From Malassezia furfur (lineage: Eukaryota), in the NCBI GenBank assembly GCA_052055015.1, contig JBQJIT010000006.1: DNA of 20,000 nucleotides. One strand, written 5' to 3'. Numbering within the stretch: position 1 is the first letter of the stretch; each line of letters opens with the position of its first letter. Position numbers and translations under genes: made by a program. Under the pieces are notes generated by a model. It saw nothing but the letters and a program-made list of their open reading frames with translations, made no database searches and was not told the origin of the DNA. Positions 186 to 19,788 of this stretch are shown one piece after another.

Positions 186-985
186 ATGGCATCGCGGCTG
201 CTGGACCAGTCGCTCGCGGACGTGCGCCGCGAACGGAGAGCCTCGGGCGGTAGCGCTCGCGCCGCGCCATACGAGGTATGCGTTGATGTGATCGACTGAC
301 CATACAGCGTCTACAGCGTGCTTCCGATGACACGTGGAAGCACGACAAGTTTACAGAGCGACGCGGCGCGCCGCGTCACGGCCCTCCGTCGGCGTCGCAC
401 GCAGACCAGGTCGCAACGAAGGTGGCCATCGATGGGCTGCACTACGAGGTGTCCGAGCAGGAGCTGAGGGTACGTACACACTTATTGTGTAGCTGACGCC
501 AGGACCTGTTCAGCCAGGTGGGGCCCGTCGCCAAGGGACCCTCGATCAAGGTACGCACCGTGCCTCTTACACCAGTTCGACGCATCGGGGAGATCAACTG
601 GATCCGCCATGGTGTGGTACCACTCTGAGGAGGATGCCCAAGCCGCCGTGGACGAGTTCGATGGTGCCAAAGCCAAGGGCGAAACGATCCAAGTCAAGGT
701 GCTTGGAACGACGCGTCTAAACCCTGGTCCGTCCAAAAAGGGTACAGCAGGCCGCACCCCGTCCCTCGCAGACCGTCTTGCTGGGACTGCGCCGCAACCC
801 AAACACAAAGTGCCCACGTCGAAACCGCGGGGCGCGCGCCGCGAGCGGAACGCACGCCGTGCGCCGGCGTCGGCAGCGGATTTGGATGCAGAGCTGGACG
901 CGTTTATGAATGCGCCGGCTGCACAGCCGGACCAAGGGGTATGTCCTGCATTGCTGATCAACAGGAAGTGGCTATGGAAGAGTAA
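186..985 (+). CDS. ALYREF: mRNA export adaptor, ALYREF/Yra1/THO4 family RRM protein (~227 aa; exons 186-275, 308-469, 503-550, 576-938, 965-985)
   Basis: The spliced translation has an N-terminal UAP56-binding-like box (LLDQSLAD), a WxHD motif (DTWKHDKF), an RRM (KVAIDGLHYEVSEQELRDLFSQVGPV...FDASGRSTGSAMVWY) and a C-terminal box (ADLDAELDAFM). Four GT-AG introns (32, 33, 25, 26 nt) each keep or restore frame. Confidence 0.9.
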
Positions 986-3425
986 TTAGGCCCCCTCCAG
1001 CTCCATTAGCGCCTCGCGGTCGCGCCGTTTCTTTACCAGCCCGTACTCGCGCGAAACCTGTGTTGTATTCATCCATCCCTCGGGAACAAAGTCGGCGATC
1101 TGGCATGAGCATAGCGAGTACGTACGCGTTTGTACAGTGCCTTGCGCGCATTAATCTCGCTGTAGGTCTCGGGTGAATTCTCGAGCTTCAGTTTCTCGTT
1201 CCGGATCTCGCTCATCGCATTCTCGACGGTGACGATGGTAAAGAGCTCGTCGCGCATCTCGTCGGTCCATCGGAACCGCTTCGCATGGTCTGTGGTAAGT
1301 GATGACACCTACCGTCGTTCGCGCCTGTCCCGTCCTCCTTCTCGGTGAGATCGACTTCGCGGTCGTCGTCGTCTTTTTCGTCGTCGTCGTCCTTTTCGTC
1401 GTCATCGGAGCCAGAAACCGACGCATTCGACGCATTCGTAGTGTTCTCAAACGAGGTCTCCGACTTGTTCTCCTCGGGTGCTTTCTGTCGGCCCTTTTCT
1501 GAAGCCGCATACTCGGCGGCCTGCTGGGGGAACGAGTCCTGGATGAGCTTGTACAGGACATCGAGCTGCTCCTCCTGCAGTTCGCGGTAGTATTCCATGT
1601 GTTTGTGGAAGAACTCGCGCTTGGTCAATTTCTAGGGTCAGCATCACACGGAAAACAGGCGTACCATCATAGTGAACCGATTGTACGGGAAAATGGACGG
1701 CAAGTAGTTGAAAAAATTGTCGTTGTACTCATCCAGCTCGACAGCCAGCTTCGCCGTATCGATCAGCGGAGGTTTGAGCTCGGGAGGGAACTTGGTCTTA
1801 ACCGCAAAGCTTGCCCGCTGAACCAGGGTCTTGAGATGATCGAACATCGCTTGCAGCTGGGGATGGACGGGACGGGTAGGATACTTGTTCTTCTTCTTGT
1901 CCGCCTTGTCCGTAGACGAGCTGGGTACTGGTTGCGTCGGAGTCGCTTCCCGATGCTGGCTCGGCTCCTGGGGGGCGGGGGGGGCGACACTGGTTTCTTT
2001 GTCTGGCTCAGCCTGCGGCGTCGGTGTCGCTTGGTCAGACGGCGTTGGCCCCTCCTCGCTGGTCTTGGGTTTCGGTGCCGGCGGTGCGATACTTTGGCTC
2101 TTGCGCGACGCTGCACGCTTGGCCAAGAGCTTGTTGGTCTGGCGCGCATAGCCAGACCAGCCACCACCCATACCCGACCCGTTGATGCTCGAGCGGAACG
2201 CCGATGCAGACCGGGAAGCGAGTTGGTTCGACTTGGCACGGGCCAATTCAACAGGGCCCAAAGCCACATAGAACCCGTCGGAGCGCGTCTTGACAATGTG
2301 CGTGGGCTCGTCCAGACCTAGCTCAGAGTCGTCCACAAAGGGGTCCTTGGTATCGTATGAGCCCACGTCGTATTCGTCCACACGCCGCTTGCGTTGGGGG
2401 CCGCCACTGCTTTGCGGCGGGTATTTCTGCAAAAGCTTGGCAAGGTCGCCCAGATCCTCGAGCTCTTGCTGAGAGAGGCCCACGCTTTGATAACTTGAAT
2501 GCGACATTTCGGATTCCAAGTAGGTCGAGCGGTACCATGCAGCCCACTTGGGATATTTGGATTCCAGCCGTTCGACCGACAGCTTTGGAATGGACGCGAT
2601 ATAGTCGCTCTTGCTAAGACTGCCTGGATGAATGTCAACTTGGAGCCGGATGGTCGGCCGGGGGAGCGTCGTCGGCGTTGCATCGTCCTCGTCCTCGTCA
2701 GGACTGGGACTACGAGGTCGCTTGCGCGACACTGCATCCGGTTCCTTCTCGTGCTTCTCAGGCTCGTCTTCTTCCATCCTTTCAGGCGCACCACTGCCTT
2801 GTTTGGACTCGTCACTGCGCACTTCCGACGACCGCGTCGCGGCCGGCTGTGATGACGACACGGTGTCAGAGGCGGTGGATGATGTCTGCTCTGCGTTCGG
2901 TTTAACAGATGACGTCTCGGATTCCTTTGATGCCGAGCTCAGGGGAGTAGTTTGTAGTGCGACGCGACGTGGCTTGCCACGCTCATGTGAGGATTTCGGA
3001 CGCTCCTGGGTATTAGAACCGCGCACTGGTTCAACTTCGCCCGTTCTTGGCTTGGGTGAGCTAGCTTTCGATGCCTTTTCGCCTCCCGTTTCCCCTGTCT
3101 CGTGTTCTGCAGACGGAAGCGGCGTATCGATGGATGGAGTTGGCTCCGTATCCCTGAATGGCTCCTCTCTCACCCGTGTAGGCTCTGAAAGCATCGCAGG
3201 CTGCTCACCTGGCATACTTCCTTGTGGTTCCTCGGACTCGGGCCGGCTCGGTTCACTTCGGGGCGCCGGCAGACTGGCTGGAGCACGCGTCAGGTTGCTC
3301 TCAGTATGTGGCCCGTTGACCTGGGTAGGCGGGCTGTCATCAATGGGGAATAGACCTGCTGAAGGGTCAGAAGACCCTGTCCGTGGTATCGAAGGGTTCA
3401 TGTTTATGTCTTGTTCGGGATCCAT
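986..3425 (-). CDS. HPC2: HIR/HIRA histone chaperone complex subunit Hpc2/ubinuclein-like (~785 aa; exons 3425-1665, 1631-1313, 1289-1126, 1099-986)
   Basis: HUN/HRD-like motif EYDVGSYDTKDPFVDDSE...DGFYV, a ubinuclein middle-domain-like segment KFPPELKPPL...NFFNYLPSIFPYNRFTM, and C-terminal RFRWTDEMR...PEGWMNTTQVSREY after splicing. Three GT-AG introns (33, 23, 26 nt) join ORFs 1644..3425, 1212..1628 and 1069..1308 in frame. Confidence 0.85.
1362..1406. repeat. Coding tandem repeat, 18-bp unit x2.5, encoding the acidic tract DDDEKDDDDEKDDDD in Hpc2
   Basis: gtcgtcgtcgtctttttc / gtcgtcgtcgtccttttc / gtcgtcatc read directly. Confidence 0.8.
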
Positions 3426-3847
3426 GACAGCACGTCACTGCATGACCCAGGATGGGAGGAAACACGAAATTTAGGATTCGCGGTGCGCGATCGGCGTGGC
3501 ACTTCCGGACGTGTCACGCCTCCATCCAACACCGCGTTTGGCGCATCGATCGGGCATTTGAACTAATGGTATCGTTACGTTCCTCTACGTGAAATAGCGC
3601 TTTCACGCGCAATAAAATTGAAGCATAATGTGCATGACCAAAAAAGTGAGCCACGCCCTTCAGAGTGGTGTACTGGGTTCACTTCGGCCCTGTGCAACGT
3701 CTCTGTTTCGCTATTGCCAACGGGATATCACCCGATGACTCGTACTTTATTTATGGAAAAATCGCACGGTTTCGATAGTACCCTAGATAAAATAAATCTG
3801 TAGATTTCACAATCTCATCTTGAACCTACCTACCCAAACGCTTGGAC

Positions 3848-5381
3848 ATGAGCACGTTTACGCATGTGCTGATCGTCGGCGGAGGCGCCTACGGTGCCTC
3901 GACAGCCCTAGAGCTCGCGCGCTTGGGCCACAAGGTTACCGTGCTGGAGAAATCGGCGAACGGAAATGCGGCGGACAATGCCGCCTCGAACGACCTGAAC
4001 AAGATCATCCGTGCAGATTACGAGGTAGGTTTCTGAAACTCACAGCAAGGACCAGCACTACCGTGACCTGTGCAAGAAGGCCATTCACCATTGGCGCACT
4101 AACCCGATCTTGAGGGACTACTACCATGAAACCGGAGTATTCTTCCGGTCAGGTATGCATCTCAGCAAGGTCGCTCAGTGGGTCGAGGACAGCGTGAAGA
4201 ACGCCAATGCATCTGTGACGGACATGGGCGACAATGTCGACAAAGTCGATTTGCCGGCAGCTTTTGCTGTGATGGACAGCGAGCGTGCGGTAGGTGTTTT
4301 CCCATCCGAGCTGCAGCCGCACCTGGGACATGCCTACAAGGCGTTTGATGGCCAAGTAGGCTACTTTAACCCACAAGGTGGATGGGCAGAGGCCAACAAT
4401 GCCACTGTGTCGATGCTGAATGAAGCAAGACGTTTGGGTGCGGAGGTCGTGGGCAACGCGCGTGTCACTTCCTTGATCTATGCAGAGCCCAAGTACAACC
4501 AGACCAAACCCAAGGTCATGGGTGTCAAGACGGCTGATGGCCGCGCATTCTATGCTGACCGTGTTGTGCTGGCGGCGGGCTGCTGGACGTCGTCGCTGTT
4601 GAACCAGCTCAAGCTTTCCTTGCCGCGCCCAGTGTTGAAGGCTACGGCGCATTGTGTACTGACGCTCAAGTTGGATCCCGAGGTCGCCAAAAAGTTTAAA
4701 GGCACGCCCGTAACGTTCAACATGTACAGGTATGTTGCTGCGGACGTTAAGACTAATCGCAGCGGTTTCTACACGTTTGAGCCGAACGCAGATGGCATCC
4801 TCAAATGTGCCATCCACGGTGTACGTCTCCTTGCTAACCCTGCAGACCGGATCGCTCGACTTCGATCCTGCAAAGTTCCCTGGCACGGAATACGCCAATG
4901 TGGCGACGGAAAAGCAGTTGAACCAAATGATCGCCGAACTGCGCACGTTGTTCCCCATCCTCCAGCTTGAGGGCCCCAACAAGAATGCCAGCATTTTGTT
5001 TACGCGCATGTGCTGGTACAGTGACTCGGTGGATGAAAACTTCCTGATCGACTTTTATCCCGGTGTCGACGGTCTCTTGGTTGCCTCGGGCGACTCGGGC
5101 CACGGTTTCAAGGTATGTAACATGCTGACGCCTAGTTCCTGCCCGTTCTTGGTCGTCTGATCTCTGCGCGCCTGCTCCATTTGGAAAGCGGCACGGATGA
5201 GCTCGTGCCTGATTTTGGCCTGTCGTCTCACCAGCGTCGTGTGTTTTCATTTGCACACCACCTCGAAATGAACGACCCGGCGAACCCGAACCGGAAGTCG
5301 ACCGACTCCATTCGGGTCGGCGAGGAGGCCCCCAACCCCGAGTCGTATCTGGAATCTGATGCGGTCAAGGCAAAATTGTAA
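3848..5381 (+). CDS. Peroxisomal FAD-dependent amine oxidase of the sarcosine oxidase / L-pipecolate oxidase / fructosyl amino acid oxidase (DAO-like) family (~475 aa; exons 3848-4024, 4050-4729, 4763-4820, 4846-5112, 5136-5381)
   Basis: Rossmann motif VLIVGGGAYGASTALELAR, family motif AASNDLNKIIRADY, RMCWYSDS (Cys at the position used for covalent FAD in MSOX-type enzymes), SGDSGHGFK|FLP rebuilt across a 23-nt intron, and C-terminal AKL (canonical PTS1). Confidence 0.9.
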
Positions 5382-5417
5382 TTGAGCATCTCATATGCAT
5401 AGCTCATACGCCATCAC

Positions 5418-5729
5418 TCAGGTGTGTAGGTTCTCGAGACCATCCAATGCTTTGGAGACGTCTGTCCGCCGCCCACTCTTCTTTGCTTCACGCAACTGTC
5501 TGTAAGTCGGTTCACGTACTGGATTCGCCGGCAGCTGCTCGGCCTGCGCGAGCTGGGGTAGGAGGTCGTCGAGTTCCTCCCGCTGTTTGGCATCGCGGGC
5601 TTTGTTTGAAGAGAGACGCTGCCGCGCCTTGAGATGCGCACGCTTGAACTCCTTGGAAAACTTGGGCACAGGTGAGGTACTTGGCTTGGACGAGCGCGGC
5701 GAGGTCCTGCTGGCGCGCAATTTGGCCAT
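5418..5729 (-). CDS. Small basic hypothetical protein (103 aa), possibly nucleolar or ribosome-biogenesis related
   Basis: Single-exon ATG-to-TGA ORF filling the gap between two flanking genes. K/R-rich with a helical-looking core (KEFKRAHLKARQRLSSNKARDAKQREELDDLLPQL). Function not recognisable with confidence. Confidence 0.65.
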   Translation of the reverse strand: MAKLRASRTSPRSSKPSTSPVPKFSKEFKRAHLKARQRLSSNKARDAKQREELDDLLPQLAQAEQLPANPVREPTYRQLREAKKSGRRTDVSKALDGLENLHT

Positions 5730-5909
5730 CGTCGTTGCAATCGAGAGTTAAACAAAAATTTCCCCCAGGAGGCACCAATGTGGAGGATGAGTGGTATATC
5801 CAATAGATTCGGATCAAAGCGACTGCACTATGTGTTTTCTTCTAATATGACATGCTCCAAGGGTTCTTGGTCGTAATTCTGCAGCAGCCTGTGCGCAAGC
5901 AGGGTTTAC

Positions 5910-7558
5910 TTAGAGCTTGACGTTCTTGGGGAAGAAACGAAGCGCCTGCCTGAGACCAAGATCGGCAAGAATCTCCTCCGAACCGCCAAGGACGGCATCG
6001 AACTTGTAGGTGCGGTGGTACATTTCGACGGGCGCACCCATGCCCGTCCGGGTGAGACCACGGCCACCCATGATCTGAACCGCGCTGTCGGCAACCTGCT
6101 CACTAACGCGCGTCGACCACGCCTTGAGGAAGGCAATCTGGCCCGCAAGGAACTTGGCCTGCTGCTTGTAGGACATCTGGTTCATCTGGTGCGTGATGTG
6201 CTCCAGGTAGGCGTGGAGCGCCTCGACCTGCGCAATCAAGAAAGCAATCTTTTGGCGTACAACCGGCTGGGCACTCAGCGGACGGCCGAACACCTTGCGC
6301 TGGTTGATCCACTTGAGGAGCACCTCGATGATGCCACGGGCGCCGCGGGCGATACCGCACACCATGACCCAGCGCTCGTGGTTGAAGTTGGACAGGACGA
6401 TGGGAATGCCCATGCCGTCCTGGCCCACCAGGTAGCGCGCAGGCACCTTGATGTTGTTGAACATCACAAACGCAGTGCCGGCTGTCGTCGAGTAGGACGT
6501 GTGGAGCTGGCGCGTCTCGACGCCGAGCGAGCGGGGAATGACAATCACACCAAAGCCATCGTCGGTGCGGACAGCGGTCGTGAAGTAGTCCGCGAAGTGG
6601 CCGTTGGTGATCCACTTCTTCGTACCGTTGACGATGTAGTGCTGACCGTCTTCGGTCTTTTGGGCGTACGTCTTGAGACCCATGACGTCGGAGCCGGCAA
6701 AGGCCTCGGTCACGGCCAGCGCAATGAACTTGTCGCCGCGGAATACAGGCTCAACAATCTCCTCCTTGAGGTCGTCCGAGCCAAAGTTGAGAATGGGCGG
6801 CAGACCAATGACCATACCACCGTTGAGACCATCCATGAAGCCGCGCTGACCGCACCGCGAGAGCTCCTGCGTGATGATCATCTCGTGGAAGTAGTCAAAC
6901 TCCTCGGGCTTAATGTCAGCAAAGAGCTTGCGACCCTTGAGGTGCTTGCCAGGGCCAAGACGCATCGCGTTCAGGCCGTTCTCGCCCATGCGCTTGACGA
7001 GCTCCACGTCGGGGCGCTTGCCGTCCAGTTCACACCGTTGCGCAACAGGGCTGACGTAGGTATCGGTGAACTTGCGCATCTCGCGCTGGAAACGGCGGTG
7101 CGACTCGTTGTAGTACGGGGAAGCAAACGGTTCCACCAGCCAAGAGGGCTCGGCGTACGGAACCTTGGACAGTTCGCCGGGTTGCGGGTAGTGAACCTCC
7201 GACTCCTCGCCTTCGACTTGACCAATGATCATCTTTTCGTAACGCTGGAGGATGGCGATGGTGTGGAGACCACTGATGGTTAGCACGCAATTCGCTGCGA
7301 CAAAACGTACAAGAACGTCTCGGTCGCATCCTGACCAGCAATCTCCTCCGAGAGAAGAACGGCCTCACCACCAGGATGGGCCTCCACGAAGTCCGACAGG
7401 TCGTAGACATAGCTGTCGATGATAATCCAGAGATCATCGGCCTTGTTATGCTGTGAGAGTTAGCTTTGCTCCTCGCGCACGTCAATATAAGTACGCACCT
7501 TGGCAACCTCGTCGCGCGAGAAACGCTTCAGTTCCTTCTTCGACTCCTGAGCAGACAT
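5910..7558 (-). CDS. Acyl-CoA dehydrogenase with N-terminal cytochrome b5-like heme-binding domain (~520 aa; exons 7558-7499, 7450-7311, 7272-5910)
   Basis: The spliced N-terminus MSAQESKKELKRFSRDEVAK|HNKADDLWIIIDSYVYDLSDFVEAHPGGEAVLLSEEIAGQDATETFF|GLH is a cytochrome b5 fold with HPGG and a second His. ACAD motifs are ALAVTEAFAGSD, VNGTKKWITNG, RKVFGRPL, QIMGGRG and GGSEEI. The protein ends in VKL. Introns are 48 and 38 nt. Confidence 0.92.
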
Positions 7559-7853
7559 CGTGTGTATGATTCGACTTTCAAATGAAAACGAATAGGTGAC
7601 CACCTAAGAGCACTTCTAGTGGCGTGAGGGAAGTGGGGTAATGCGCCGCTGACCGGCCTCAAAATGCCATTGCAGCTGCGCTCGTTGGCCAGGACGTCGG
7701 CCGAAATCGAACTTAGCACAGTTGCGCACAACGTCCGGCAAGTAAACTCGCCGCTCAGCCGGCGTGGAGCCCCACGTGAGTCAGGTGGAGGGAGTGCCTT
7801 GCGTCGCTCGCGTGGAGAGAAAAGTCACGCACGCGATCCAACACAGCGCGCGC

Positions 7854-8627
7854 ATGGGACTGCTCACCGTGATCCAAAAGAACAAATGTATGCTTCTTTT
7901 GCTTGTTTTAATGATGCTGACACCCGAGAAAGACAAGGACAGGGAGATTCGTGTTCTCTTTCTGGGCCTAGACAATGCAGGAAAGACCACCACACTCAAA
8001 CACCTCATGAATGAACGCGTCGATACAGTCAGCCCCACGTTTGGTTTTGCGATTAAGACATTTACACGTCAAGGGTACGTAAACCAATATGGTATGACTG
8101 ACCTGGTACAGGTATACGCTCAACGTCTGTAAGTCTCGGTACACCGGCAAAGTAAATCGACAGGAATTAACACGTCAGGGGATGTTGGAGGGCAAAGGTC
8201 TCTGCGGCCATACTGGCGCAACTATTTTGAAAAAACCGATGCTATTGTGTGGGTCGTAGACAGCAGCGACCCGCTTCGGATGGAAGACTGCCGACAGGAG
8301 TTATGGTCACTTCTTGGTGAAGAGGTGAGGATCATCGCAATAACTGATGTCAGAGACTTGCTGGAGCAAGTATTCTGATTTTTGCAAACAAGCAAGATAT
8401 ACCCGGTGCGCTCACGCCTGAGCAGATAAAAAAAGTATTGGCCATCTATTTGCTGACCGCCACAGCTTCTACGTCTGGACGAGATTCGGACACATTCTTG
8501 GAGAATTCAGGCATCTAGTGCTTACACTGGTGAGAATTTGGACAAGGGCTTGGACTGGCTCTTGCAGGACATTGCCTCGCGGTTATACTATTATGGAACA
8601 ACGCCTGAGACTGGCTCAAGCGCGTAA
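7854..8627 (+). CDS. ARL2: ADP-ribosylation factor-like GTPase Arl2/Cin4/Alp41 (~193 aa; exons 7854-7887, 7933-8074, 8112-8128, 8179-8324, 8354-8434, 8466-8627)
   Basis: Spliced sequence [31 protein letters not shown]...SPTFGF...[27 protein letters not shown]...[17 protein letters not shown]...SAYTGENL. All G-box motifs and Arl2 signatures are present. Five introns (45, 37, 50, 29, 31 nt). Confidence 0.95.
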
Positions 8628-8709
8628 TCTATGTGGAGGGTCCATAGCGCTGCTGAGATCAGCATCACCGCAACGTCACTCTTGGCTGCCGCGCGCGTCC
8701 TTGCATGCG

Positions 8710-9660
8710 ATGACGATTCGCGCAGTTCTTATATTCAATAACTATGGGAATCCAAGGGTCTCCAAGTTTTATTCACATCTTCCTGTCGATCGCCAGCAGG
8801 CCTTGATTCAGCTTATTTTCCAGCTGGTTAGTCGTCGGGACGACAAAACCGTATGCAACTTTCTCGATGCGCCTGAATTGACGCCACTTCTGCCCCCGAT
8901 GACGGCTGACGCATGGTCGAAGGCATCCTCTGCACCGCTAGCAAATGCGGGAATCTCAGATTCAATTACATCTGAAGACGACGCAGACCAAAACTATGAC
9001 CCTTGGGTCACTTATTCGAAGACGCAGCCCGCCCCGACGAAAAAGACGAATACGCGATGGCGTCCTGACGACGAGCTACGCGTAATCTACCGTCACTATG
9101 CAACGCTATACTTTGTTCTTGTTGTGGACCAAAGCGAGAGCGAACTAGGCATCCTCGACTTGATCCAGGTATGTACAGTACGGTGGGAACTGACACCTAG
9201 GTAATTGTGGAAGCGTTGGATCAATGTTTCGAGAATGTCTGTGAGCTTGACTTGATCTTTCACTTTGACCAAGTATGTTCTGACTTGGCTGACCCGTTCA
9301 GGTGCATGCAATTATTGACCAAGTAATTCAAGGAGGGCTTGTGCTGGATACCAACATTACCGAGATCGTCTCTGGAGGTACGTCGCCGCACGCATACTGA
9401 CAACCATAGCCCGTGCTGTTCTGCAAGCGCGCAAAGCATCAATGGGGTCCGGAATCGGTGCACTGGGCGCATTGGGTGCTGCTCAGAATGCTTCGGCCTA
9501 CTTGAACCCGCAGTCCATCATGCAACAACTGGGCAACGTGTCGCTCGGCAGCCTCGCGGAGCGAGGGACGAGTGCACTGGGAGCCTTGCAACAAGCGGGG
9601 AATAGTTACTGGAGCTCGCCGAGCGGAAACCTCCCCCGCAACCGGTCCACGTGGATGTGA
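8710..9660 (+). CDS. APS3: AP-3 adaptor complex sigma subunit (~285 aa; exons 8710-9168, 9201-9272, 9302-9377, 9410-9660)
   Basis: MTIRAVLIFNNYGNPRVSKFY...VCNFL...VIYRHYATLYFVLVVDQSESELGILDLIQ|VIVEALDQCFENVCELDLIFHFDQ|VHAIIDQVIQGGLVLDTN matches sigma-3 signatures. Three introns (32, 29, 32 nt). Confidence 0.93.
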
Positions 9661-10087
9661 GCCGCCAAGCCCCTGATGCCGAGACGAAGGCGGCTGATAC
9701 GCATTCTGCTCCTCGATCTTAGCATCCTCGCATCGTGTAGAATAAGAAAAGGTTGGCATTGAACAAAGGACCCATGACCGACCAGCAGCCATGGATCAAC
9801 TGAAGCAAACTATAAGAGAGGCATAAAAAGGGAGAGAACAGAAACAGAAGGCAACTTGATGAGCCCATCATTCAAGTTGTACGAGTCACAGAACGAGTCT
9901 GAAATGCCAACAATTTTGAACGTGTCAACGCTGGGTATTCGGACTCTGCACGGAGCGTGCAAAGAGAAACATCAGAAAATGGTTTGCCGTGCGGCAAGGC
10001 ACCAACACCATAAAACCCATAACAAAAGAAACCTGGAACACATCATACAAAGTCTTGCGCTTTCATAAATTGACCCCGAGCCTCTTT

Positions 10088-10501
10088 TTACAGAAGCTTG
10101 AAGTTGAGGCCGGTAAGGACACCCTCATCAAGGTCAGCAAAGTGCGAGAAGAGACCCTTCGTGGCGTCAAAGTGGCCGTAGCCGCAGCCATCGCAGTAGT
10201 CGCGAATCTTAGCCTTGACCGACTTGCCACGGTACGACAGCTCGACCTCCTGGTTGCACTGACCGTAGCCACCGTTCTGAGCGACGGCCACAATCAGATC
10301 CGAGTCCGAGGGAGTGGGACCACCGCAAGCGGGGTTGTCAAGCATGTAGCCGGCGTACCAGGTCAGCTTGCCGTTGTTGCGCTTCTCCATGCCGTTCTCA
10401 GAGGCGTGGCGCGCCTTGAGCTCGTGCGAGCGGAGAGGAGCCTCAGCAGAAACCAGGCCAGCCACGGCCAGGGCAGCAACGAAAACAGAGGTAAACTTCA
10501 T
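10088..10501 (-). CDS. Secreted RlpA-like double-psi beta-barrel (expansin/loosenin/barwin-like) protein, 137 aa
   Basis: Signal peptide MKFTSVFVAALAVAGLVSA, dibasic KR before the domain, and GKLTWYAG...ACG...IVAVA...C...SVKAKIRDYCDGCGYGHFDATKGLFSHFADLDEGVL, which is the fungal DPBB/loosenin pattern. Confidence 0.88.
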   Translation of the reverse strand: MKFTSVFVAALAVAGLVSAEAPLRSHELKARHASENGMEKRNNGKLTWYAGYMLDNPACGGPTPSDSDLIVAVAQNGGYGQCNQEVELSYRGKSVKAKIRDYCDGCGYGHFDATKGLFSHFADLDEGVLTGLNFKLL

Positions 10502-10911
10502 TTCTGTGAATATGTTCAGGTTAGTGGTTAGGTCTTGAGGATTTGAGGATAAACACGACCAGTCGTGTTTTGCGATGGGTGTGGTGAAGGTGAGGAAGGG
10601 CTCTGTGACTTGAGGAGCGGACGGGCGGTAAGGACGATATCGAGCGGCGTTTGCCCTTATTTAACCGAGCCATGGATCTTTGGATCGCACGGCAAGCGAA
10701 CGCAATTGCCGCTGCAAATGGGGACAGGGCTAGGCGTTAGAAGTTGGCTATGTAACACAGTTTTGGCCAATGGTCATGCGCGAAATGGGTGTTGGTATGA
10801 TTATGTAATGTATGTGCGTGAGATATTTGCATAGAATGTGACATGCCTCATGTGGGCTATGCCTGTCTTGCATCCAATGGCATACAGGCGTCAGTTCGGG
10901 TGTGCGTTTTC

Positions 10912-12801
10912 TCAGCCAAAGGCTGTGTTTGGAAGTGACATAGGCTCGTGCGAATCGGGCAAGGGTGTGTTGGACGATGCGAGTGTCCAACACCTCCGTA
11001 GCCCAGTGCCCATTGTCAAGCGCTCCACTGCATCGCGCCGAAGCCATTGTGCGCCACGTGCAATTGTGCCCGATGGATGGGCTGCGTCGGCCCTGGTCAA
11101 ATCGCCCAGATGCATGTCGATGAGGCAGACATGCATGTCCCACTGGAGGTGACTGAACGTGTGCTTAATGCGTCCCAGGAACCGTGCCGTTCCTGGACGC
11201 TCGGTAGTGCATTGCATATAGCCTTGTCCCCCGTTCCATGTCGGCAGCAACAAATCCCGCACATAGTCTTGTGCTTGCGATAAGACTTGGTCCTCCGCAG
11301 GCTCTTCTGTCAGATTCGATAGAACTGCTGTAGGGAATTCCCATAGGCTCGCCAGCAACCCTTTTTCGGGGCGCTGATGCACCAAAAAGAGGGTACCATC
11401 CTGATCATCTGGTAGATTGGGCTGTGCCGGTGAACTCGTGTGCAATCGGAGGATGCATACCAGCCGACCCTCAACACGCACGTTCTGCTTGATAGCCTTG
11501 CGGGGAAATTGCTGCGCGTACTTTTGTGCTACCAGGGCATCCGACGAGGGTTTCGAGGTAGTCCCTGCCGAGGGCTTCGGCCCTGGCTTGGGCGGCGGTG
11601 CCGTTCCAAACAACGTTGTCTGCTTCATCGCCTTTTTTGCAGGGCCGGCCGGCGTGCTTTTTCTGAGGCTGACCTGTTCTTTCTTCAGGTCAGTGAACTC
11701 CGGTACGGCTTCGGGTATGTCGTCGCAAAAGGTACATAGATCTTCAATGTCCGCGGGCTCAGACGGCGCAACGGGTGATACAGCATTGGCCATGCCCTCT
11801 GCAAATGCCATGCACGTTGCCTGGAGGGGGCAAGACGGACAGTCGGGCTTGGTGGGAGTGCATAGTGTACTGCCGAGCTCCATAAGCCCTTGGTTCCATT
11901 TGCCAGGGATGGCGCTCGGCTCGGGAGGACAGTCGTTGTCGTCGCAGGGGGGTGCACCCGGAGATGTGGCCGCTCGCACAACAAGGAGTCGTGCCGTCTC
12001 CCAAAGAAGATCAGTGGTTTGTTTGGTCTTGGGGTCAGCATATAGTGCGATCTGACGGCTGAGAACGCGCGCAACGTTGCCGTCCAGGATCGGAACAGCA
12101 TGGCCGAACACGATCGACGAAATGGCACCCGCCGTATAAGGGCCGACACCAGGCACTTTGCGTTGAAGGTCTTCAACGTGATCCGGGAGCATCCCCTGGA
12201 GCTCTGGGTCCTGTACGACCGACTTTGCCGCCTGGTGAATACGCGTGGCACGACTGTAGTACCCGAGCCCACGCCAAGCAGCCAGTACATCGTCCGGTGC
12301 CGCTTCGGCGAGTGCCTCAATGGTTGGCCAGCGCTCCATCCATGCTTGCCAATAGTCTCGCACGGTTTCGACGCGTGTTTGTTGAAGCATAATTTCCGAG
12401 ATCCAGACCTGGTACGCGCGTCGTTTGAGTTCTTCATGAAGGTCCATCGGTGGCTCCTTATTGTCTGTACGTGCCCGCTTTGCGCGTCGCTCGTTTACAT
12501 CGATCCACTCGCGCCGCCATGGCATGTTCCGGCTGTGCTCCTCCTTCTCGAACCAGTTCAGAAGACGGTCAAACCCCTCGGGGTGATCGAGAAGCTGTGG
12601 CCGGTGGTACTGCGCATGATGTTGGCGCAGCGGGAGCCGCGCCGGTGTCTGAGTAGCCTTGGCCTCCGACGGCGTCTGTAGGAAGGCAAAACTCTTGCTG
12701 CCCGCCTTTTTGGTGCGCGGCAGCGCGCTCGACTTGGCCATGGACGCAAGCGACACTCGCTTTTTGCTACGCGCCTCGCGTGGTTCTTCAGATTTGGTCA
12801 T
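10912..12801 (-). CDS. MUTY: A/G-specific adenine DNA glycosylase MutY/Myh1 (629 aa, intronless; the start could be a downstream Met)
   Basis: RNMPWR, AYQVWISEIMLQQTRVETV, WRGLGYYSRA, HhH VPGVGPYTAGAI, ILDGNVARV, [4Fe-4S] motif CTPTKPDCPSCPLQATC, linker DIEDLCTFC, and a NUDIX-like C-terminus QRPEKGLLASLWEFP...HTFSH. Confidence 0.95.
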   Translation of the reverse strand: MTKSEEPREARSKKRVSLASMAKSSALPRTKKAGSKSFAFLQTPSEAKATQTPARLPLRQHHAQYHRPQLLDHPEGFDRLLNWFEKEEHSRNMPWRREWIDVNERRAKRARTDNKEPPMDLHEELKRRAYQVWISEIMLQQTRVETVRDYWQAWMERWPTIEALAEAAPDDVLAAWRGLGYYSRATRIHQAAKSVVQDPELQGMLPDHVEDLQRKVPGVGPYTAGAISSIVFGHAVPILDGNVARVLSRQIALYADPKTKQTTDLLWETARLLVVRAATSPGAPPCDDNDCPPEPSAIPGKWNQGLMELGSTLCTPTKPDCPSCPLQATCMAFAEGMANAVSPVAPSEPADIEDLCTFCDDIPEAVPEFTDLKKEQVSLRKSTPAGPAKKAMKQTTLFGTAPPPKPGPKPSAGTTSKPSSDALVAQKYAQQFPRKAIKQNVRVEGRLVCILRLHTSSPAQPNLPDDQDGTLFLVHQRPEKGLLASLWEFPTAVLSNLTEEPAEDQVLSQAQDYVRDLLLPTWNGGQGYMQCTTERPGTARFLGRIKHTFSHLQWDMHVCLIDMHLGDLTRADAAHPSGTIARGAQWLRRDAVERLTMGTGLRRCWTLASSNTPLPDSHEPMSLPNTAFG

Positions 12802-12846
12802 ATTTCACGTATCGGGCGTTCCATCGGGAACGCGTCGACCAACACC

Positions 12847-15511
12847 ATGAAAAAGCGCCGGACGTCGGCGGAGACGTCGGGTCTGAGTGCGGGCTCACCG
12901 CTGGCGGGTTTCGGGCTGGCTGGGAGTCCTCTTATGCTTGGGTCAAGGAATCTGGGCATGCTTGGCACGGATGGGAGCACGAGTATGGTGCGTCAGGACG
13001 ACGAGGCGAGCAACAGTGGGCTTCTTGATCTCGACCCCATGCTGCCCATGGCCCGGCATGGGGCGCCCACGCGCCACATGAACATAGGCACGCCTGTTCT
13101 TGGGCCGCAGAGTGATGTCCAGCTCCTCCAACTGCCCCCGCTCCGGGGCAAATCCAAAAGGCCGCCGCGTCGCTCCTCCCTGGATGCGCCATGGCCGCAG
13201 CCGTCCCTCGGCGCGCCGCGCAGCGTCTCGGACACGCGTGCATCATCGGGCGAGTCGAATCACAGCGTGATTATCCACGAAGAAAGTCCTCCGACCAAGT
13301 GGCAGCAGTCGCCCGAGAAAAGTGTGCCAGATGATCCTGCGCCGGCCGCTCAAGACGCGCCCGCCGCGCGTTTGCCTGCGCGGATGCGGCGGTGGATGCA
13401 CGATGCGATGAAGCAGCACATGTACGAGACGGCCATCTTCTGGGGCCGGCATGTCGTGGCCCTCGAGCGTACGTATGCCCCTCCCGACTCACGCAGCTAC
13501 CGAGATGGTTTACAACGACGCCTACTGGCTTGCCCAGGCATACTTCCTGACGCACCAGTACGCACGCGCCGAGCAGCTGCTTACCACACCGCTGCGGTGC
13601 GGTGCGGTGGATGTGCCAGCGGAGCCCCTCGGCCGCGGCGATGCGCGGCCGGCTCCACAGACGGACGCACTGCACGATGCCCTCGCATCGACGCGCGCGC
13701 ACAGCATCCTCCCAGAGTCATTGCGCCGAAGAACAGCGCAGGAGGACGACTCCAGTGAGGACGACGCGCAGGTCGACCATCTGCTCGGCATTCAAGGCGC
13801 CCGACCCGCGCGCCATGCGGCTCCACGCGGCAAACGCGAGCGGTCCTCGTCGTTCGATGCGACGGAGGATATTTTCCAGGCAGATGCGCGTCTGCCGCCC
13901 ACCTTCCTCACGACCGATGAGGAGGTGGAGCAGGTGATCCAGGCTGGATCTGACGCACTGGCCCAGGGCCCGTGTCTGGTAAACTGGAGCACGCCCTGCC
14001 GCTATCTGGCGGCGCAGTGCCAGGTACGGCTCGGCAAGTTTTACGAGGCGCTCGAGCTCACGGGCGAGGATCATACACGGTGGACGGGCGGGGGCACACA
14101 CTCGACTAAGATGCCGGCGCGAGACGACGGCCTGAAGCTGGGGTCGTCGGTGTGTCACCTGCGCGGCCAAATTTACCTGCGGCTCGACGAGGTCGTCAAG
14201 GCAAAAGAGTCGTTTATGCTCGCGCTGAGCCTCGATGTGAAAAACTACGACAGTTTCTCGGCGCTGATCGACGGCAACCTGCTCGGCGCCGACGAGCAGT
14301 GGGACTTTGTCCAGGCACTCGAGTTTGCGTCCCAGGCGGGCGACGAGCCCGGGGCCAAGGACGATTTCGAATGGATCCGCTGGATGTACACCGCGCGGCT
14401 CTCGAAGCAGACCGCGGCGATGGCCCAGCGCGCAGCGCACGCACGGCAGTCGCTCCTAAAGCAGCACAAGATGCTCGGTGCCAGTCCCGACGTGCTCCTG
14501 AGCCTCGCCGAGGCGCTCTACGCGGGGCTCCGGTACGACGACGCTTACGCTGTGACGAGCCACATCATGAAACTCGACCCTTCCTACACGCTTTCGTTGC
14601 CCATCCACATTGCATGCATGTACTATTTGCCGCGGCTGCGTCCGGCCCTGTTTTTGCTGGCACACCAACTGACGGAGGCGGATCCGGAAAGCTGTGAGGC
14701 TTGGTACGCTGTGGGCGTCTGGTACGCAAGCGCGTCGCGCTGGGCCGAGGCGCGGCGGTACTTTAGCAAGTCCTCGCTGCTGGACCCCCGCTTTGCGCCG
14801 TCGTGGATCGCGTTCGGGCACAGCTTCTCGCTCGAGGGCGAGTCAGACCAGGCGGTCACGGCGTATTCCACCGCCGCGCGCAAGTTTCCCTTTAGCGGCC
14901 TCCCGCGCCTGTTCATCGGCATGGAACACCTGCTACAGGGCAACAAAAACCTCGCAGTGCTCTTCCTGGAAAGCAGTGCGGAGGAGCTGGGCGACGACCC
15001 GCTGTGTGCCAACGAGCGTGGCGTCGCTGCGTTTTTGGGCGGGCAGATCGACGAGGCACTCGGCTTTTTCCACGCGGCCATCCGCGCGGCCGAGGCCACA
15101 CAGCAGCCCGCGGGTGCGTGGGTGCATGTGCACCTCAATCTGGGCCTCGCGTACAATCGGCTGCACCGCAACGACGAGGCCCGCACGAGCCTGTTGCGCG
15201 TGATCGAGAGCGACCCGAGCTGTGCTACGGCGTACATCGCGCTCGGGATGTGTGCCCAGCGCGAGGGCGATTTGGCAACGGCCATCGACTGGTATCACGA
15301 GGGGCTGGGCATCGATCCGCGCGACCCAGTGGGTACGGAGCTGCTGACCATGGCGCTGGAAGCGCGCTTGGACCAGGGCTTACCCCCGGGCCTGGTGTCC
15401 CTGTCGGAGGAGAGCGACGAGGCGGGCTTGCAGGGCGTCGCGTCCAGTGGCGCACACGATGCGAGTGCCTCACATCAAGCTTCTTGGACAGGACGCAAGG
15501 CTCCTCGGTGA
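12847..15511 (+). CDS. CDC16: Anaphase-promoting complex TPR subunit Cdc16/Apc6/Cut9 (~878 aa; exons 12847-13468, 13497-15511)
   Basis: MRRWMHDAMKQHMYETAIFWG...NDAYWLAQAYF joined across a 28-nt intron (GTACGT...CTCAC GCAG). TPR signatures ALSLDVKNYDSF, AWYAVGVWY...EARRYFSKSSLLDPRFAPSWIAFGHSFSLEGESDQAVTAYSTAAR, DPLCANERGV. Confidence 0.92.
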
Positions 15512-15566: not shown

Positions 15567-16688
15567 TTATGCAAGGTGCGCAAGGAACGCATCCAACGCC
15601 TGCTTTTCCACACCGAGCTCCTGGGCGAACGTCGCGACCCCGGCGCTTGCGTCCACTGGCGGGCCCTGCAGCGCCTGCACCAACGCCGCAAGCTTGTCCT
15701 TCGGCAGCGGAAGCGTCGGACGGCGCTTGTCAACGAGCGTCATGATGACTTGCAGCACTTTTTCGTCGTAATCAACGTCATTGCGCGTCGGCTGCCCATT
15801 GCATTCGGCCGCCGCACCTGTAGCACCGGGGAGCAGCGAAGTAAGCAGCGCATCAAAGATGCCGCTCTCTACTAGCGCCTGGGCCACGTCCGGATGCCGG
15901 ACCTTGACGCGCTTGGTCGCCGGTCCCTCTTCAAGGGGCACCGGCGGCATGTGGCTATCGCCCGAGTCCTTTGCCGTCACAGCGGTCTCAGGCATGGGCG
16001 GGCCGTCTTGCATCGGCTCCGAGGAGTCCATGGGGTCCTGAACCAGGAGCTGGTTCAGCAAGAAGGCCACCTTGCGGCGCACCACGATGCTCGAGTCCTG
16101 TAGCGCGCCCGCAAACTTGGCCCAGCCACTCGCCTCGGCAAATTGGGCGACAGCCGCCGGGTAGTGTCCGAGCAGCGACGAGATGGCATACATCGCCTTG
16201 CTCCGCAGCTCGGGCGTTGGCGCCTCGAGCAGCGATAGCAGGATAGGAAGGATACCATGCCCGAGTGCCACAACTTGAGCCTTGTCGTTGTTCTGCATTG
16301 CCGTACCCACAATCCACGCAGCATTCAGCTGGATCTGGGGTTCGTCGCTGGACTGTAGCAGCTTGAGCAACGCCGGCCACATTTGCAGCGACTCCATGTT
16401 GTTCGCATTGTCCACCTGCTCGACCAGCATCTCAAAGTTGTCGAGCGCGGTGAGGCGGTCGGATTCAGGCCGCAAGCGGTCGACCGCCACGCCCAACTCT
16501 TCTTGCATCATCTGTGCCTCGCTTTTGCCCATCAACGCTTCGTACAGCGCCGGATCTTGGAGATCGGGGCGGCGGCCCGCGGCGATATCGTCCGAGACTT
16601 GCGCAACGGACGACTGGCCATTGTCAGCCATCGGGGCATTTTGCAGGCCCCATTTGAGTAGTTCGTCTGCGTTCTTGTTGCCAGACAT
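15567..16688 (-). CDS. FES1: Hsp70 nucleotide exchange factor Fes1/HspBP1 (armadillo repeats, ~373 aa)
   Basis: ELLKWGLQN, ALDNFEMLVEQVDNANNMESLQMWPAL, AAWIVGTAMQNNDKAQ, KAMYAISSL, VRRKVAFLL. The start is placed at ATG 16688 (MSGNKNADELLKW) by homology. The longer start in the ORF track is not an ATG. Confidence 0.93.
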   Translation of the reverse strand: MSGNKNADELLKWGLQNAPMADNGQSSVAQVSDDIAAGRRPDLQDPALYEALMGKSEAQMMQEELGVAVDRLRPESDRLTALDNFEMLVEQVDNANNMESLQMWPALLKLLQSSDEPQIQLNAAWIVGTAMQNNDKAQVVALGHGILPILLSLLEAPTPELRSKAMYAISSLLGHYPAAVAQFAEASGWAKFAGALQDSSIVVRRKVAFLLNQLLVQDPMDSSEPMQDGPPMPETAVTAKDSGDSHMPPVPLEEGPATKRVKVRHPDVAQALVESGIFDALLTSLLPGATGAAAECNGQPTRNDVDYDEKVLQVIMTLVDKRRPTLPLPKDKLAALVQALQGPPVDASAGVATFAQELGVEKQALDAFLAHLA

Positions 16689-16898: not shown

Positions 16899-17210
16899 AT
16901 GGTATGTATCCGTGGTATCGTCCAGATACCGCTCGAGATTTGGATGCTAACGATGTAGGGTTCCTGTTTCTCTTCTATGAGCGGCGGCGACAAGGGCAAG
17001 AAGCTCAGCCGCACCGACACCAACCGTGGCAACGAGCTGCACCGCACCACGTCCTCCTACCAGGGCTCGGTGGCCGACGGCATGCGCTACTCGGATAACG
17101 CGACGTCCTCAGTCGACCGTGACCGTCTGACGGCGTCGCAGGTGCACAAGTCGAGGACGCTCGAGGAGCGTATCCGGCAGGCGGAGCGCGAGAACCGCAC
17201 CCGTGCCTAA
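16899..17210 (+). CDS. 84-aa microprotein with predicted N-myristoylation/S-palmitoylation start MGSCFSS (exon 1 coding part = ATG 16899-16901; exon 2 16959-17210)
   Basis: ATG followed directly by a GTATGT donor, a GCTAAC branch point and a TAG acceptor at 16958 (57-nt intron). The spliced frame reads M-GSCFSS and joins ORF 16977..17210 in frame. Confidence 0.75.
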
Positions 17211-18003: not shown

Positions 18004-19788
18004 ATGGCTATTACAAGTCTCCAACATCGAGATTCAGTCCTGGATCCTGCTCATCCAGCGCTGCCCTCTCGTTATGATTTTCCGTCCAAACCGGACTACA
18101 GTCACGAGCGCGACGCCCTCTCCCCTCTGGTTCACCATTCACACAGCCGCGAGCCTGTCTCTCTCCAGCAGCGGGCATCGGGAGACAAGCTAGCACCGAT
18201 CTGGCCGCACCACGAGATGAAGCCCGACCAGAGCCCCGTATCCAGTGAGGAGGACTCTCCGCCGCCTCAGCGCCGCCTGTCGCGGACGCCGCCCGAACGT
18301 GAGGAGCCTGCGCGTGCGAAGCGTGCACATCGCTCGTCACCGACGATGCGTCAGAGCGACTGCACACATCCCGCCGTCGGCTCGTGCCCCGGCGATGGAC
18401 TGTGCAACGGCATGGGTGGTACATCGAGCTGTGACGGGTGCCCGACGTATAACAACGTTATCGTCCAGTCATCTACGACGCCGCCCGGCTCGGCGAGTGG
18501 GCAGGAGGGCGCCGCGGCGTCCGAGTCGACCGACAAGAAGCTTGCGTCTGCCACGGCGCCGGGCGCCGAGTCGCGTGGCACGAGCCAGTCATCGAGCCAA
18601 ACGGCGCCCTCGTCCGATACAGCCAACGGCGGTGCGGACAAGACGGAACAAGGCGCCCGCCCGGCCATTGAGGCGCTGCGCTGCACCAACTGCCAGACGA
18701 CCACGACGCCGCTGTGGCGCCGCGACGAGGACGGCAACAACATCTGCAATGCGTGTGGTCTTTACCACAAACTACACGGTACGCATCGTCCGATTGGGAT
18801 GCGCAAAACGGTTATCAAGCGGCGCAAGCGCCTCACGAATAGCGGTGCAAACCACGGCAACGCACATGCACACCACTCGAACGCGGGCAATGCGACTGCC
18901 TCGCCCAGCGGCAGCGGCAGCAACACCAACACCGCTGCTGCGGTGCCTGTGCGCAATGCGCCGTCGGCGGGCGTCTCGCCCGTGAGCATGCGCGGGACGC
19001 CTGCGCACACGAACGACGGGGGTGCCTACGCGCGTGCGGAGCGTGATCGCGAAGCGGCCATGGTCCTCATGGAGGTCGGCACGACGCGCTGGGGCAAGCC
19101 GCCGGTGCAGGCGCGGCACGGCGTGCGCGTGCCGCCGGCGTCGGCGCCGTCGGTGTCGAGTGCGTACGGTGCGCCGCGCAGTGCGCCGAACAGTGCCGCG
19201 GCGTACGCACTGGACGAGGCCGAGGAGGCGGCACTGCTGCAGCAGCGCGCCGCCGAGCATTCGCCCGCGTTTGCCGGACAGTCGCCCGTGCACGCCGACC
19301 GGCGTCTGGCGTCCGAGGCCGAGTACGCGGCGAGTATGGCCCACTCGAATGCGATGGGCATGCACACGCGCATGTATCCTGCCTCGGGTGCGTACGCGGC
19401 CGGCGCGATACCCTATTCCCACGCGATGCGCCTGTCGGAGCTCGAGCGTTTGCGCGACGAGCTGTACCTCGAGCGGAGCCGGCTGAACGACGTGCTGGAG
19501 CGCACCGAGATGGCGCTCGCCGATGCGCGGCGGATGCGCTACCCCGCGCCGCGCATGCGCAAGGCGTCGCCGGGCGACCTGGGCGAAGCCGAGTCGCTGC
19601 ACGTCTCGCGCGTGCACTCGGATGCGCCGTACGAGGACGCGGCGTACTCTACTCCACCCCTTCACGCGCAGGACGTCGGCGTCGAGACCAAGCATTTGTC
19701 GGACCTATCGGACATGCGCGGAGCGCCCGGCGCGGTGGCGACGCCCGCGTCGGTCGTGTCGGCGTGGCGCGCGCGCGATGCGCGCTGA
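18004..19788 (+). CDS. Iron-responsive GATA transcription factor of the SreA/Urbs1/Fep1/Cir1 family, single zinc finger (594 aa)
   Basis: Cys-rich iron-sensing region [26 protein letters not shown], followed by the GATA finger [50 protein letters not shown], and a C-terminal coiled-coil-like segment [29 protein letters not shown]. Confidence 0.9.

Follow-up and report, generated by a model that had tools for sequence, protein, structure and literature searches.

How small a spliceosomal intron can become in a fungus, and whether the smallest ones call for a special route of spliceosome assembly, are questions raised by a 20-kb stretch of contig JBQJIT010000006.1 from Malassezia furfur (assembly GCA_052055015.1; the whole stretch of 20,000 nucleotides (nt) is called the window). 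The original prediction, made from the letters of the window, had described 23 GT-AG introns of 23–57 nt with a median of 32 nt, and had proposed that the shortest imply a compact assembly route. Gene models rebuilt independently of that prediction gave identical figures: eight interrupted genes holding 23 GT-AG introns, 23–57 nt long (median 32 nt, mean 33 nt), with two introns of 23 nt, three of 25 nt and two of 26 nt. The seven shortest segments that had been quoted (1290-1312 and 1100-1125 on the minus strand; 5113-5135, 551-575, 4025-4049, 4821-4845 and 939-964) were found letter for letter in place. Homology and signal content make it very likely that these are ordinary U2-type GT-AG spliceosomal introns, compressed to a layout near the smallest that is workable.

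The window has a GC content of 50–71% and is densely packed with genes. The eight interrupted genes, given by their coding sequence (CDS), are as follows.

CDS 186-985, plus strand: ALYREF/Yra1-like RRM protein, 4 introns.
CDS 3425..986, minus strand: ubinuclein/Hpc2-like protein, 3 introns; PF14075 and PF08729 are found on its homologs.
CDS 3848-5381, plus strand: flavin adenine dinucleotide-dependent (fructosyl-amine-type) oxidase, 4 introns.
CDS 7558..5910, minus strand: fusion of cytochrome b5 and acyl-CoA dehydrogenase (ACAD), 2 introns.
CDS 7854-8627, plus strand: ARL2-like GTPase, 5 introns and a micro-exon of 17 nt.
CDS 8710-9660, plus strand: AP-complex sigma-like protein, 3 introns.
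CDS 12847-15511, plus strand: APC6/Cdc16-like TPR protein, 1 intron; an open reading frame (ORF) of 878 residues.
16899 to 17210, plus strand: small gene, 1 intron of 57 nt.

The splice signals of the set are strong and uniform. All 23 introns begin with GT and end with AG. The 5' splice site is GTRNGY in 21 of the 23, the exceptions being GTGAGG and GTATTG, and the acceptor is CAG or TAG in 21 and AAG in the other two. Motif prediction placed a YTNAY-type branch motif in every intron, 5–12 nt (median 7 nt) from the 3' end, with the form RCTNAY in 19; the predicted branch A lies at intron positions 16–49. In the two 23-nt introns it falls at position 16 (5113-5135) and position 17 (1290-1312), respectively 7 and 6 nt from the 3' end, which agrees with the positions 16–17 originally predicted. 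The spacer from 5' site hexamer to branch motif in these two introns measures approximately 4 nt and that from branch motif to AG 3–4 nt, leaving no room for a pyrimidine tract, whose near absence had also been noted.

The signals were also evaluated with a composite pattern comprised of a 5' site, a branch motif and NAG within a total of 60 nt or less, applied to both strands. The window gave 24 matches, whereas 300 simulated sequences of a first-order Markov model averaged 5.9±2.8 and none exceeded 16. Eighteen of the 24 are listed introns with exact ends and four more overlap listed introns. No match to the full signal pattern shorter than 23 nt was found in the window, where about 0.6 is expected by chance. 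One composite match (3841-3892, minus strand) was dismissed as antisense over the oxidase start codon. Introns of the minor, U12 type carry a RTATCCTT 5' site and a TCCTTAAC branch box. These motifs, RTATCCTT and TCCTTAAC, occur in none of the 23 sequences, and a U12 type was ruled out. Classification as degenerate mini-introns, which have a weak GTA-only 5' site, no branch motif and a narrow range of lengths, was likewise rejected, the introns of the window having strong 5' sites, branch motifs and lengths of 23–57 nt.

Reading frame provides a second line of evidence. Each of the eight genes is a single clean ORF once the 23 segments are removed, and retention of a segment, computed on the gene models, leads to a premature stop in 20 of the 23 cases, with the stop inside the intron itself in eight. 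Retention of 4730-4762 or 7888-7932 gives no premature stop, and no stop is reached within the model when 939-964 is retained. As had been stated, none of the seven introns of 23–26 nt is a multiple of three.

Support for each junction was graded using homolog alignments, continuity of Pfam profile coordinates, DNA of related Malassezia, frame and splice signals; single exons were scanned against Pfam and the profile coordinates of adjoining exons compared. Fourteen of the 23 junctions were fixed to the residue (470-502, 551-575, 1632-1664, 1100-1125, the four of the oxidase gene, four of the five in the ARL2-like gene and two of the three in the AP sigma-like gene). Frame together with partial homology supports six others (276-307, 939-964, 1290-1312, both introns of the cytochrome b5–ACAD gene and 13469-13496). 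Five of the seven introns of 23–26 nt are fixed exactly and the other two are well supported. The oxidase alignment comprised the spliced model and 12 of 16 homolog matches (P0008, P0010, P0012 and P0016 were left out), the ubinuclein-like alignment 21 of 58 homolog matches, and the ALYREF-like alignment all five. The best named protein match to the long oxidase exon is from Malassezia yamatoensis (69% identity) and that to the ALYREF-like exon from Malassezia japonica (65% identity); named matches to the ubinuclein-like exon are from Malassezia psittaci (72%) and M. yamatoensis (69%). These matches place the source of the window in the genus Malassezia.

Related DNA was sought in metagenomes with aligned ubinuclein homologs, and 34 loci were returned. 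Nine of these (L001-L009, 61–79% identity) are contigs of related Malassezia and were used for comparison; the other 25 derive from more distant fungi and were left out. By sequence the nine loci form about three groups, and four of them (L006-L009) also hold the neighbouring genes in synteny with the window. A similar scan with an oxidase exon gave 402 pattern matches, in which no relative was found.

The oxidase gene contains three of the seven shortest introns. Slashes in the protein motifs mark the junctions.

4025..4049, plus strand: oxidase intron 1, 25 nt, AAG acceptor; RADYE/DQHYRDL gapless in 9 of 12 homologs.
4730..4762, plus strand: oxidase intron 2, 33 nt, in frame and stop-free.
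4821..4845, plus strand: oxidase intron 3, 25 nt; CAIHG/TGS gapless in 12 of 12 homologs.
5113..5135, plus strand: oxidase intron 4, 23 nt, GTATGT..GCTGAC..TAG.

Removal of the 23-nt intron joins GDSGHGFK/FLP without a gap in 10 of the 12 homologs; this motif and the RRM of the ALYREF-like gene had been cited in the original prediction as rebuilt by the removal of short introns. Of the two remaining homologs one goes out of frame exactly there, and the other, from Malassezia sp. CBS 17886, has an insertion of 11 residues, V...Q (GT...CAG), exactly at this position. All three related loci that hold the oxidase lack the intron and code without a break (GDSGHG[FL]K/FLP). The deposited M. yamatoensis and Malassezia cuniculi models are short by nine residues at the position of 4025-4049 and one further model is truncated there; locus L006 codes straight across, and L007 and L008 have a 23-nt intron at that place. 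The junction of 4730-4762 is gapless in 11 of 12 homologs, which are without the 11 codons, and coding is unbroken in L006, L007 and L008; as retention of this segment gives no premature stop, the evidence here is homology. At 4821-4845, L006 is again unbroken, and the intron found there in L007 and L008 is 24 nt long. The L006 ortholog contains a 1-nt frame break in a run of A near the codon matching residue 69 of the window's protein, probably an assembly error in the metagenome contig.

The second 23-nt intron is found in the ubinuclein-like gene.

1632..1664, minus strand: ubinuclein intron 1, 33 nt, with a stop inside the intron.
1290..1312, minus strand: ubinuclein intron 2, 23 nt, GTAGGT..ACTTAC..CAG.
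1100..1125, minus strand: ubinuclein intron 3, 26 nt; ALYKR/IADF gapless in 14 of 21 homologs.

Once 1290-1312 is removed, the shifted frame reads on into KRFRWTDEM, a conserved block. The intron is missing from all nine related loci, in which coding is unbroken at the predicted junction and the same three residues precede KRFRW. Ten GT/GC-AG pairs in this region are compatible with the frame, and only the proposed pair has a consensus donor. The first intron, 1632-1664, is also missing from all nine loci, again with unbroken coding. Its junction, NRFTMM/KLTKREFF, is gapless in 16 of 21 homologs, and the five closest proteins run on with V.. exactly there. One of these five, a protein of 99% identity from an independent assembly, reads VRLFSV and then stops, which is the translation of the window's intron. 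The third intron, 1100-1125, has counterparts of 24 nt in L007-L009 and 32 nt in L006 at the same position, and coding is unbroken in L001-L005.

The ALYREF-like gene is interrupted four times, twice inside the RRM.

276..307, plus strand: ALYREF intron 1, 32 nt, GTATGC..ACTGAC..CAG, with a stop inside if retained.
470..502, plus strand: ALYREF intron 2, 33 nt, inside the RRM, with an in-frame stop if retained.
551..575, plus strand: ALYREF intron 3, 25 nt, inside the RRM; GPSIK/FDASGRS gapless.
939..964, plus strand: ALYREF intron 4, 26 nt, preceding the last six codons.

The junction of 470-502 is gapless against three of the five homologs (M. japonica and two Moesziomyces), one homolog having no coverage, and the two Moesziomyces proteins align without a gap across both RRM junctions. 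After 551-575 the next exon begins at RRM_1 profile position 32-34. In the related loci coding is unbroken at 470-502 in L007-L009 and a 30-nt intron is present in L006, and at 551-575 the introns are 25 nt in L007-L009 and 30 nt in L006. The protein region flanking 276-307 is variable, and hence this junction is not fixed to the residue, although an intron of 36 nt occupies this place in L006. Splicing of 939-964 gives a C-terminus, ..GEVAMEE, resembling ..GEAAMED of M. japonica and ..DVEMA of Moesziomyces; L007 has a 26-nt GT..AAG segment at this position followed by ..ARAMDTR and a stop. An ALYREF homolog called as an ORF (P0077) contains in frame the seven residues VCRMLMQ at the position of 470-502 and the nine residues VCMAILQQQ at that of 939-964. 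By their sequence these insertions hint at unspliced introns of 21 and 27 nt in that relative.

At junctions that the related contigs share with the window, the lengths in L007 and in the window, respectively, are 23 and 25 nt at oxidase junction 1, 24 and 25 nt at oxidase junction 3, 24 and 26 nt at ubinuclein junction 3, 25 and 25 nt at ALYREF junction 3, and 26 and 26 nt at ALYREF junction 4; the versions in L006 are 30–36 nt. The introns of the relatives are unrelated in sequence to those of the window, yet they interrupt the same codon and have the same layout. Relative to intron-less orthologs the extra DNA is 23–33 nt, starts with GT, ends with AG and contains a branch motif. Protein models of other relatives (P0002, P0006 and P0017-P0022) read through at the positions of 1290-1312, 1632-1664 and 5113-5135, the three introns missing from the sampled contigs. 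From the pattern among the sequences, these three look like shared positions with losses, gain being the other option. Close relatives that differ in having or lacking the two 23-nt introns offer clean material for the study of intron gain, loss and shrinkage. An 18-nt signal match in L007 was dismissed, being antisense over the oxidase start codon.

The layout of these introns consists of a 5' site hexamer, a spacer of as little as about 4 nt, a strong branch motif, and then 5–12 nt to YAG or AAG. Recognition would occur across the intron (intron definition), and the strength and canonical form of the signals at the 5' site and the branch argue that U1/U6 and U2 pair with them in the ordinary way. 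The branch site, and not a pyrimidine tract, may set the 3' end, the acceptor being the first usable AG a few nt downstream, and AGs only 3 nt past the branch A would be passed over. The lariat loop in the shortest introns is predicted to be 16–17 nt.

Several AGs near the branch site appear to be bypassed. In 4025-4049 a CAG 3 nt past the predicted branch A is skipped and an AAG 7 nt past it is taken, and AGs 3–5 nt past the predicted branch A give way to a later AG also in a candidate intron at 5496-5519 (minus strand) and in L007 at ALYREF junction 3. In 7888-7932 a GAG 8 nt past the predicted branch A is bypassed for a later one. To judge from the sequences, the bypassed AGs suggest a minimum distance from branch to acceptor, though 13469-13496 uses an AG at 5 nt. 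It is unlikely that this amounts to a hard geometric floor at which Malassezia splices with full-strength canonical signals, a floor that in this small sample would be at least 16 nt from the 5' site to the branch A, at least about 5–6 nt from branch to AG, closer AGs skipped and no pyrimidine tract. Were it true, and were U1 and U2 unable to occupy such an intron together, so that early assembly had to be sequential or remodelled, this culturable and transformable yeast would serve as a genetic model for the steric problem of splicing ultra-short introns.

One alternative, developed from the original prediction, holds that such introns are too short for U1 and U2 small nuclear ribonucleoproteins (snRNPs) to bind together, and that assembly is altered, compact or strictly sequential, perhaps with parts of U1 snRNP, SF1/BBP or U2AF lost or changed. 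The spacing of about 4 nt between 5' site hexamer and branch motif in the 23-nt introns, and of 3–4 nt between branch motif and AG, lends it some weight. The steric problem has already been raised for human introns of 43–65 nt (PMC4463651), a human subset uses SPF45 in place of U2AF (bioRxiv 10.1101/784868), and no study of branch geometry or of the composition of the spliceosome in Malassezia came up in a literature search excluding subscription-only papers. The signals themselves argue against altered assembly, being strong and canonical and pointing to normal pairing with U1/U6 and U2; moreover, introns of 15–21 nt are spliced in several lineages (PMC10245619, PMC12316389). Mikrocytos is reported to have a reduced spliceosome, and hence shortness alone is no proof of a new route. 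An Rfam scan of the window gave no match to a small nuclear RNA or to any other family. On balance altered assembly is unlikely, and in our analysis a special assembly route is not forced by the short length.

Ordinary splicing could also be correct in general with some of the shortest or weakest calls using other sites. For example, 1290-1312 might be part of a longer intron with a remote donor, 9378-9409 or 16902-16958 might not be introns at all, or the first intron of the ARL2-like gene might be a different one. This is quite unlikely for the set, and it draws on the points that weigh against the boundaries proposed here. The evidence for three of the 23 introns (7888-7932, 9378-9409 and 16902-16958) consists of splice signals. 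The protein upstream of the 1290-1312 junction varies in length among homologs and nine other pairs there are compatible with the frame, and for 4730-4762 and 7888-7932, multiples of three without a stop, frame logic is uninformative. The boundaries in general rest on comparison with homologs and related genomes, and the branch points are motif predictions. In favour of the proposed sites, the nine alternatives for 1290-1312 have donors such as GCACCC, GTTTCT and GTCGAT, none of them GTRNGY, and the spacing to KRFRW given by the proposed pair is the same as in all nine intron-less relatives. For the other six introns of 23–26 nt, other sites are excluded by gapless alignments or the conserved C-terminal motif. 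That nothing is spliced, the frames being broken by indels from sequencing or assembly or by decay into pseudogenes, is scarcely credible. A probable error of this kind is seen in the L006 oxidase, where a single nt in the A run breaks the frame; the extra DNA at the introns is 23–33 nt and not 1–2 nt, and it always has the GT start, AG end and branch motif. Eight genes, several of them housekeeping, would all have to be broken, the independent assembly carries the same letters into 1632-1664 (VRLFSV, stop), and the relatives hold introns of different sequence at the same positions.

Compressed introns of the ordinary U2 type are also consistent with what has been published for the genus. The curated annotation of Malassezia sympodialis (Zhu et al. 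2017, Nucleic Acids Res, PMC5389616) lists 5350 introns that average 30 bp, and 5271 of them (99%) have RNA-seq support. For Malassezia restricta the reported median is 30 (PMC9241646). Both figures bear out the original statement that Malassezia is known for short introns. Annotators of M. restricta set minimum intron lengths of 20 and 15 (PMC6473144), and a review describes Malassezia genes as having 'very short introns' (PMC7426719); an older annotation of Malassezia globosa gave an average intron of 76–79 bp (PMC4634964). The M. sympodialis and M. restricta sets come from species other than that of the window, and they are GT-AG introns of the same genus at about one per gene, whose mean or median of 30 compares with 33 (mean) and 32 (median) in the window. 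Those accounts, in their available parts, present means and a cumulative plot and do not state the shortest length, the branch geometry or the choice of splice site. The short-intron trait is thus already known for Malassezia, and the window adds a further species and comparative proof for two 23-nt cases.

Outside the fungi there is a likeness to the type B introns of Trichomonas vaginalis, which are about 25 nt with a shortest of 23 nt (PMC12316389). Like the shortest introns of the window they are 23–25 nt, with recognisable 5' site and branch motifs and the branch fixed a few nt from the AG. They differ in that this parabasalid has 63 active introns only, an ACTAA-type motif, T-rich filler and two discrete length classes, whereas lengths in the window are continuous from 23 to 57 nt and each kb of coding sequence has roughly one intron. 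Irimia and Roy (2008, PLoS Genet, PMC2483917) contrasted rare, strongly signalled introns with very short, weakly signalled ones, and cited Encephalitozoon cuniculi (35.8 nt on average) and T. vaginalis as cases that combine shortness with strong signals. The introns of the window share with those of intron-poor eukaryotes (PMC2483917) a strong branch consensus and a short, constrained distance from branch to AG, and they are very short and regular, yet not rare (23 in 20 kb). They belong with the E. cuniculi and T. vaginalis kind, but are far more frequent. Mini-introns of 15–16 nt in heterotrich ciliates, 16–17 nt in Mikrocytos and 18–21 nt in the Bigelowiella nucleomorph (PMC10245619, PMC12316389) have much narrower length ranges and belong to non-fungal lineages; they indicate that a spliceosome copes with lariat loops no larger than those predicted here. 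In Paramecium and Bigelowiella natans the introns are weakly signalled and lack a branch motif (PMC2483917), unlike those of the window. Human ultra-short introns (43–65 nt, PMC4463651) pose the same steric question for early splicing factors, but are two to three times longer than those of the window; their splice sites are often weak, and in the human genome they are rare exceptions. Ultra-short introns in fungi seem to be under-noticed, and a fungal case could help in working out how the factors that act early in splicing are accommodated on introns of this size.

There is also a practical side. It had been claimed that gene finders mishandle introns of this size, and this is seen in the deposited proteins of relatives, with their 9-residue losses and the 11-residue insertion described above; several assembly-derived homologs stop or change frame at intron starts. 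Malassezia genomes are still deposited with models that skip or swallow introns of 23–33 nt. For annotation of Malassezia, introns as short as about 20 nt should be permitted and their junctions verified by homology or RNA.

The remaining introns are longer than 26 nt and are distributed over five genes.

7451..7498, minus strand: cytochrome b5–ACAD intron 1, 48 nt, with a stop inside the intron.
7273..7310, minus strand: cytochrome b5–ACAD intron 2, 38 nt, with an internal stop; its removal brings the ACAD domains back into frame.
7888..7932, plus strand: ARL2-like intron 1, 45 nt, AAG acceptor, in frame and stop-free.
8075..8111, plus strand: ARL2-like intron 2, 37 nt; Arf profile continuity.
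8112..8128, plus strand: ARL2-like micro-exon, 17 nt.
8129..8178, plus strand: ARL2-like intron 3, 50 nt; Arf profile continuity.
8325..8353, plus strand: ARL2-like intron 4, 29 nt.
8435..8465, plus strand: ARL2-like intron 5, 31 nt.
9169..9200, plus strand: AP sigma-like intron 1, 32 nt.
9273..9301, plus strand: AP sigma-like intron 2, 29 nt.
9378..9409, plus strand: AP sigma-like intron 3, 32 nt, GTACGT..ACTGAC..TAG.
13469..13496, plus strand: APC6/Cdc16-like intron, 28 nt, joining two frames.
16902..16958, plus strand: small-gene intron, 57 nt, GTATGT..GCTAAC..TAG, directly after the ATG at 16899-16901.

The cytochrome b5–ACAD model is a clean ORF of 520 residues, in which exon 2 spans Cyt-b5 profile positions 8-51. 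Profile coordinates place most junctions of the ARL2-like gene. Exon 2 ends at Arf position 56; a split codon for G, the micro-exon YTLNV and a split codon for W together supply positions 57-63; and exon 4 continues from position 64. Exon 4 ends at position 111 with the first residue of exon 5 at 112, and exon 5 ends at position 138 with the first residue of exon 6 at 139. The first intron of this gene, 7888-7932, is suggested by its signals and by the usual length of the Arf N-terminus, and is the only GT donor and acceptor pair that keeps the frame among the options tried; 7888-7942, the choice under a first-AG rule, was rejected as it breaks the frame.

The first two junctions of the AP sigma-like gene are equally continuous, exon 1 ending at Clat_adaptor_s position 85 with the first residue of exon 2 at 86, and exon 2 ending at position 109 with the first residue of exon 3 at 110. 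The third intron of this gene is suggested by its perfect signals; the exon downstream has no Pfam match, and retention would stop the protein just past the domain. Exon 1 (8710-9168, plus strand) contains two Clat_adaptor_s matches split by an insertion of approximately 60–70 residues, apparently in frame and outside the profile. In the APC6/Cdc16-like gene, residue 5 of exon 2 is at ANAPC3 profile position 23, so that the domain must begin in exon 1. The intron of the small gene is likewise suggested by its signals. If it is spliced, the first coding exon would be an ATG alone and the product would begin MGSCFSS, which we take to resemble an N-terminal lipidation motif; a downstream ATG is an alternative start. 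The small gene at 16899 gave no match to a Pfam family.

One composite match lies outside the introns originally listed and is a candidate for a 24th.

5496..5519, minus strand: candidate intron, 24 nt, in frame and stop-free, GTACGT..ACTTAC..CAG, in a gene for a small basic protein (5729..5418).

In this candidate a CAG 3 nt past the predicted branch A is skipped and a CAG 7 nt past it is taken. Two homologs match as far as ..NPV and, within the next nine residues, either terminate or depart from it, as would be expected if an intron begins there in them too.

Four further genes of the window are apparently intron-less.

10091-10501, minus strand: small secreted-looking protein with a weak DPBB match.
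10915-12801, minus strand: MutY-type glycosylase (HhH-GPD and NUDIX_4).
15570-16688, minus strand: Fes1 nucleotide exchange factor.
18004-19785, plus strand: GATA zinc-finger protein.

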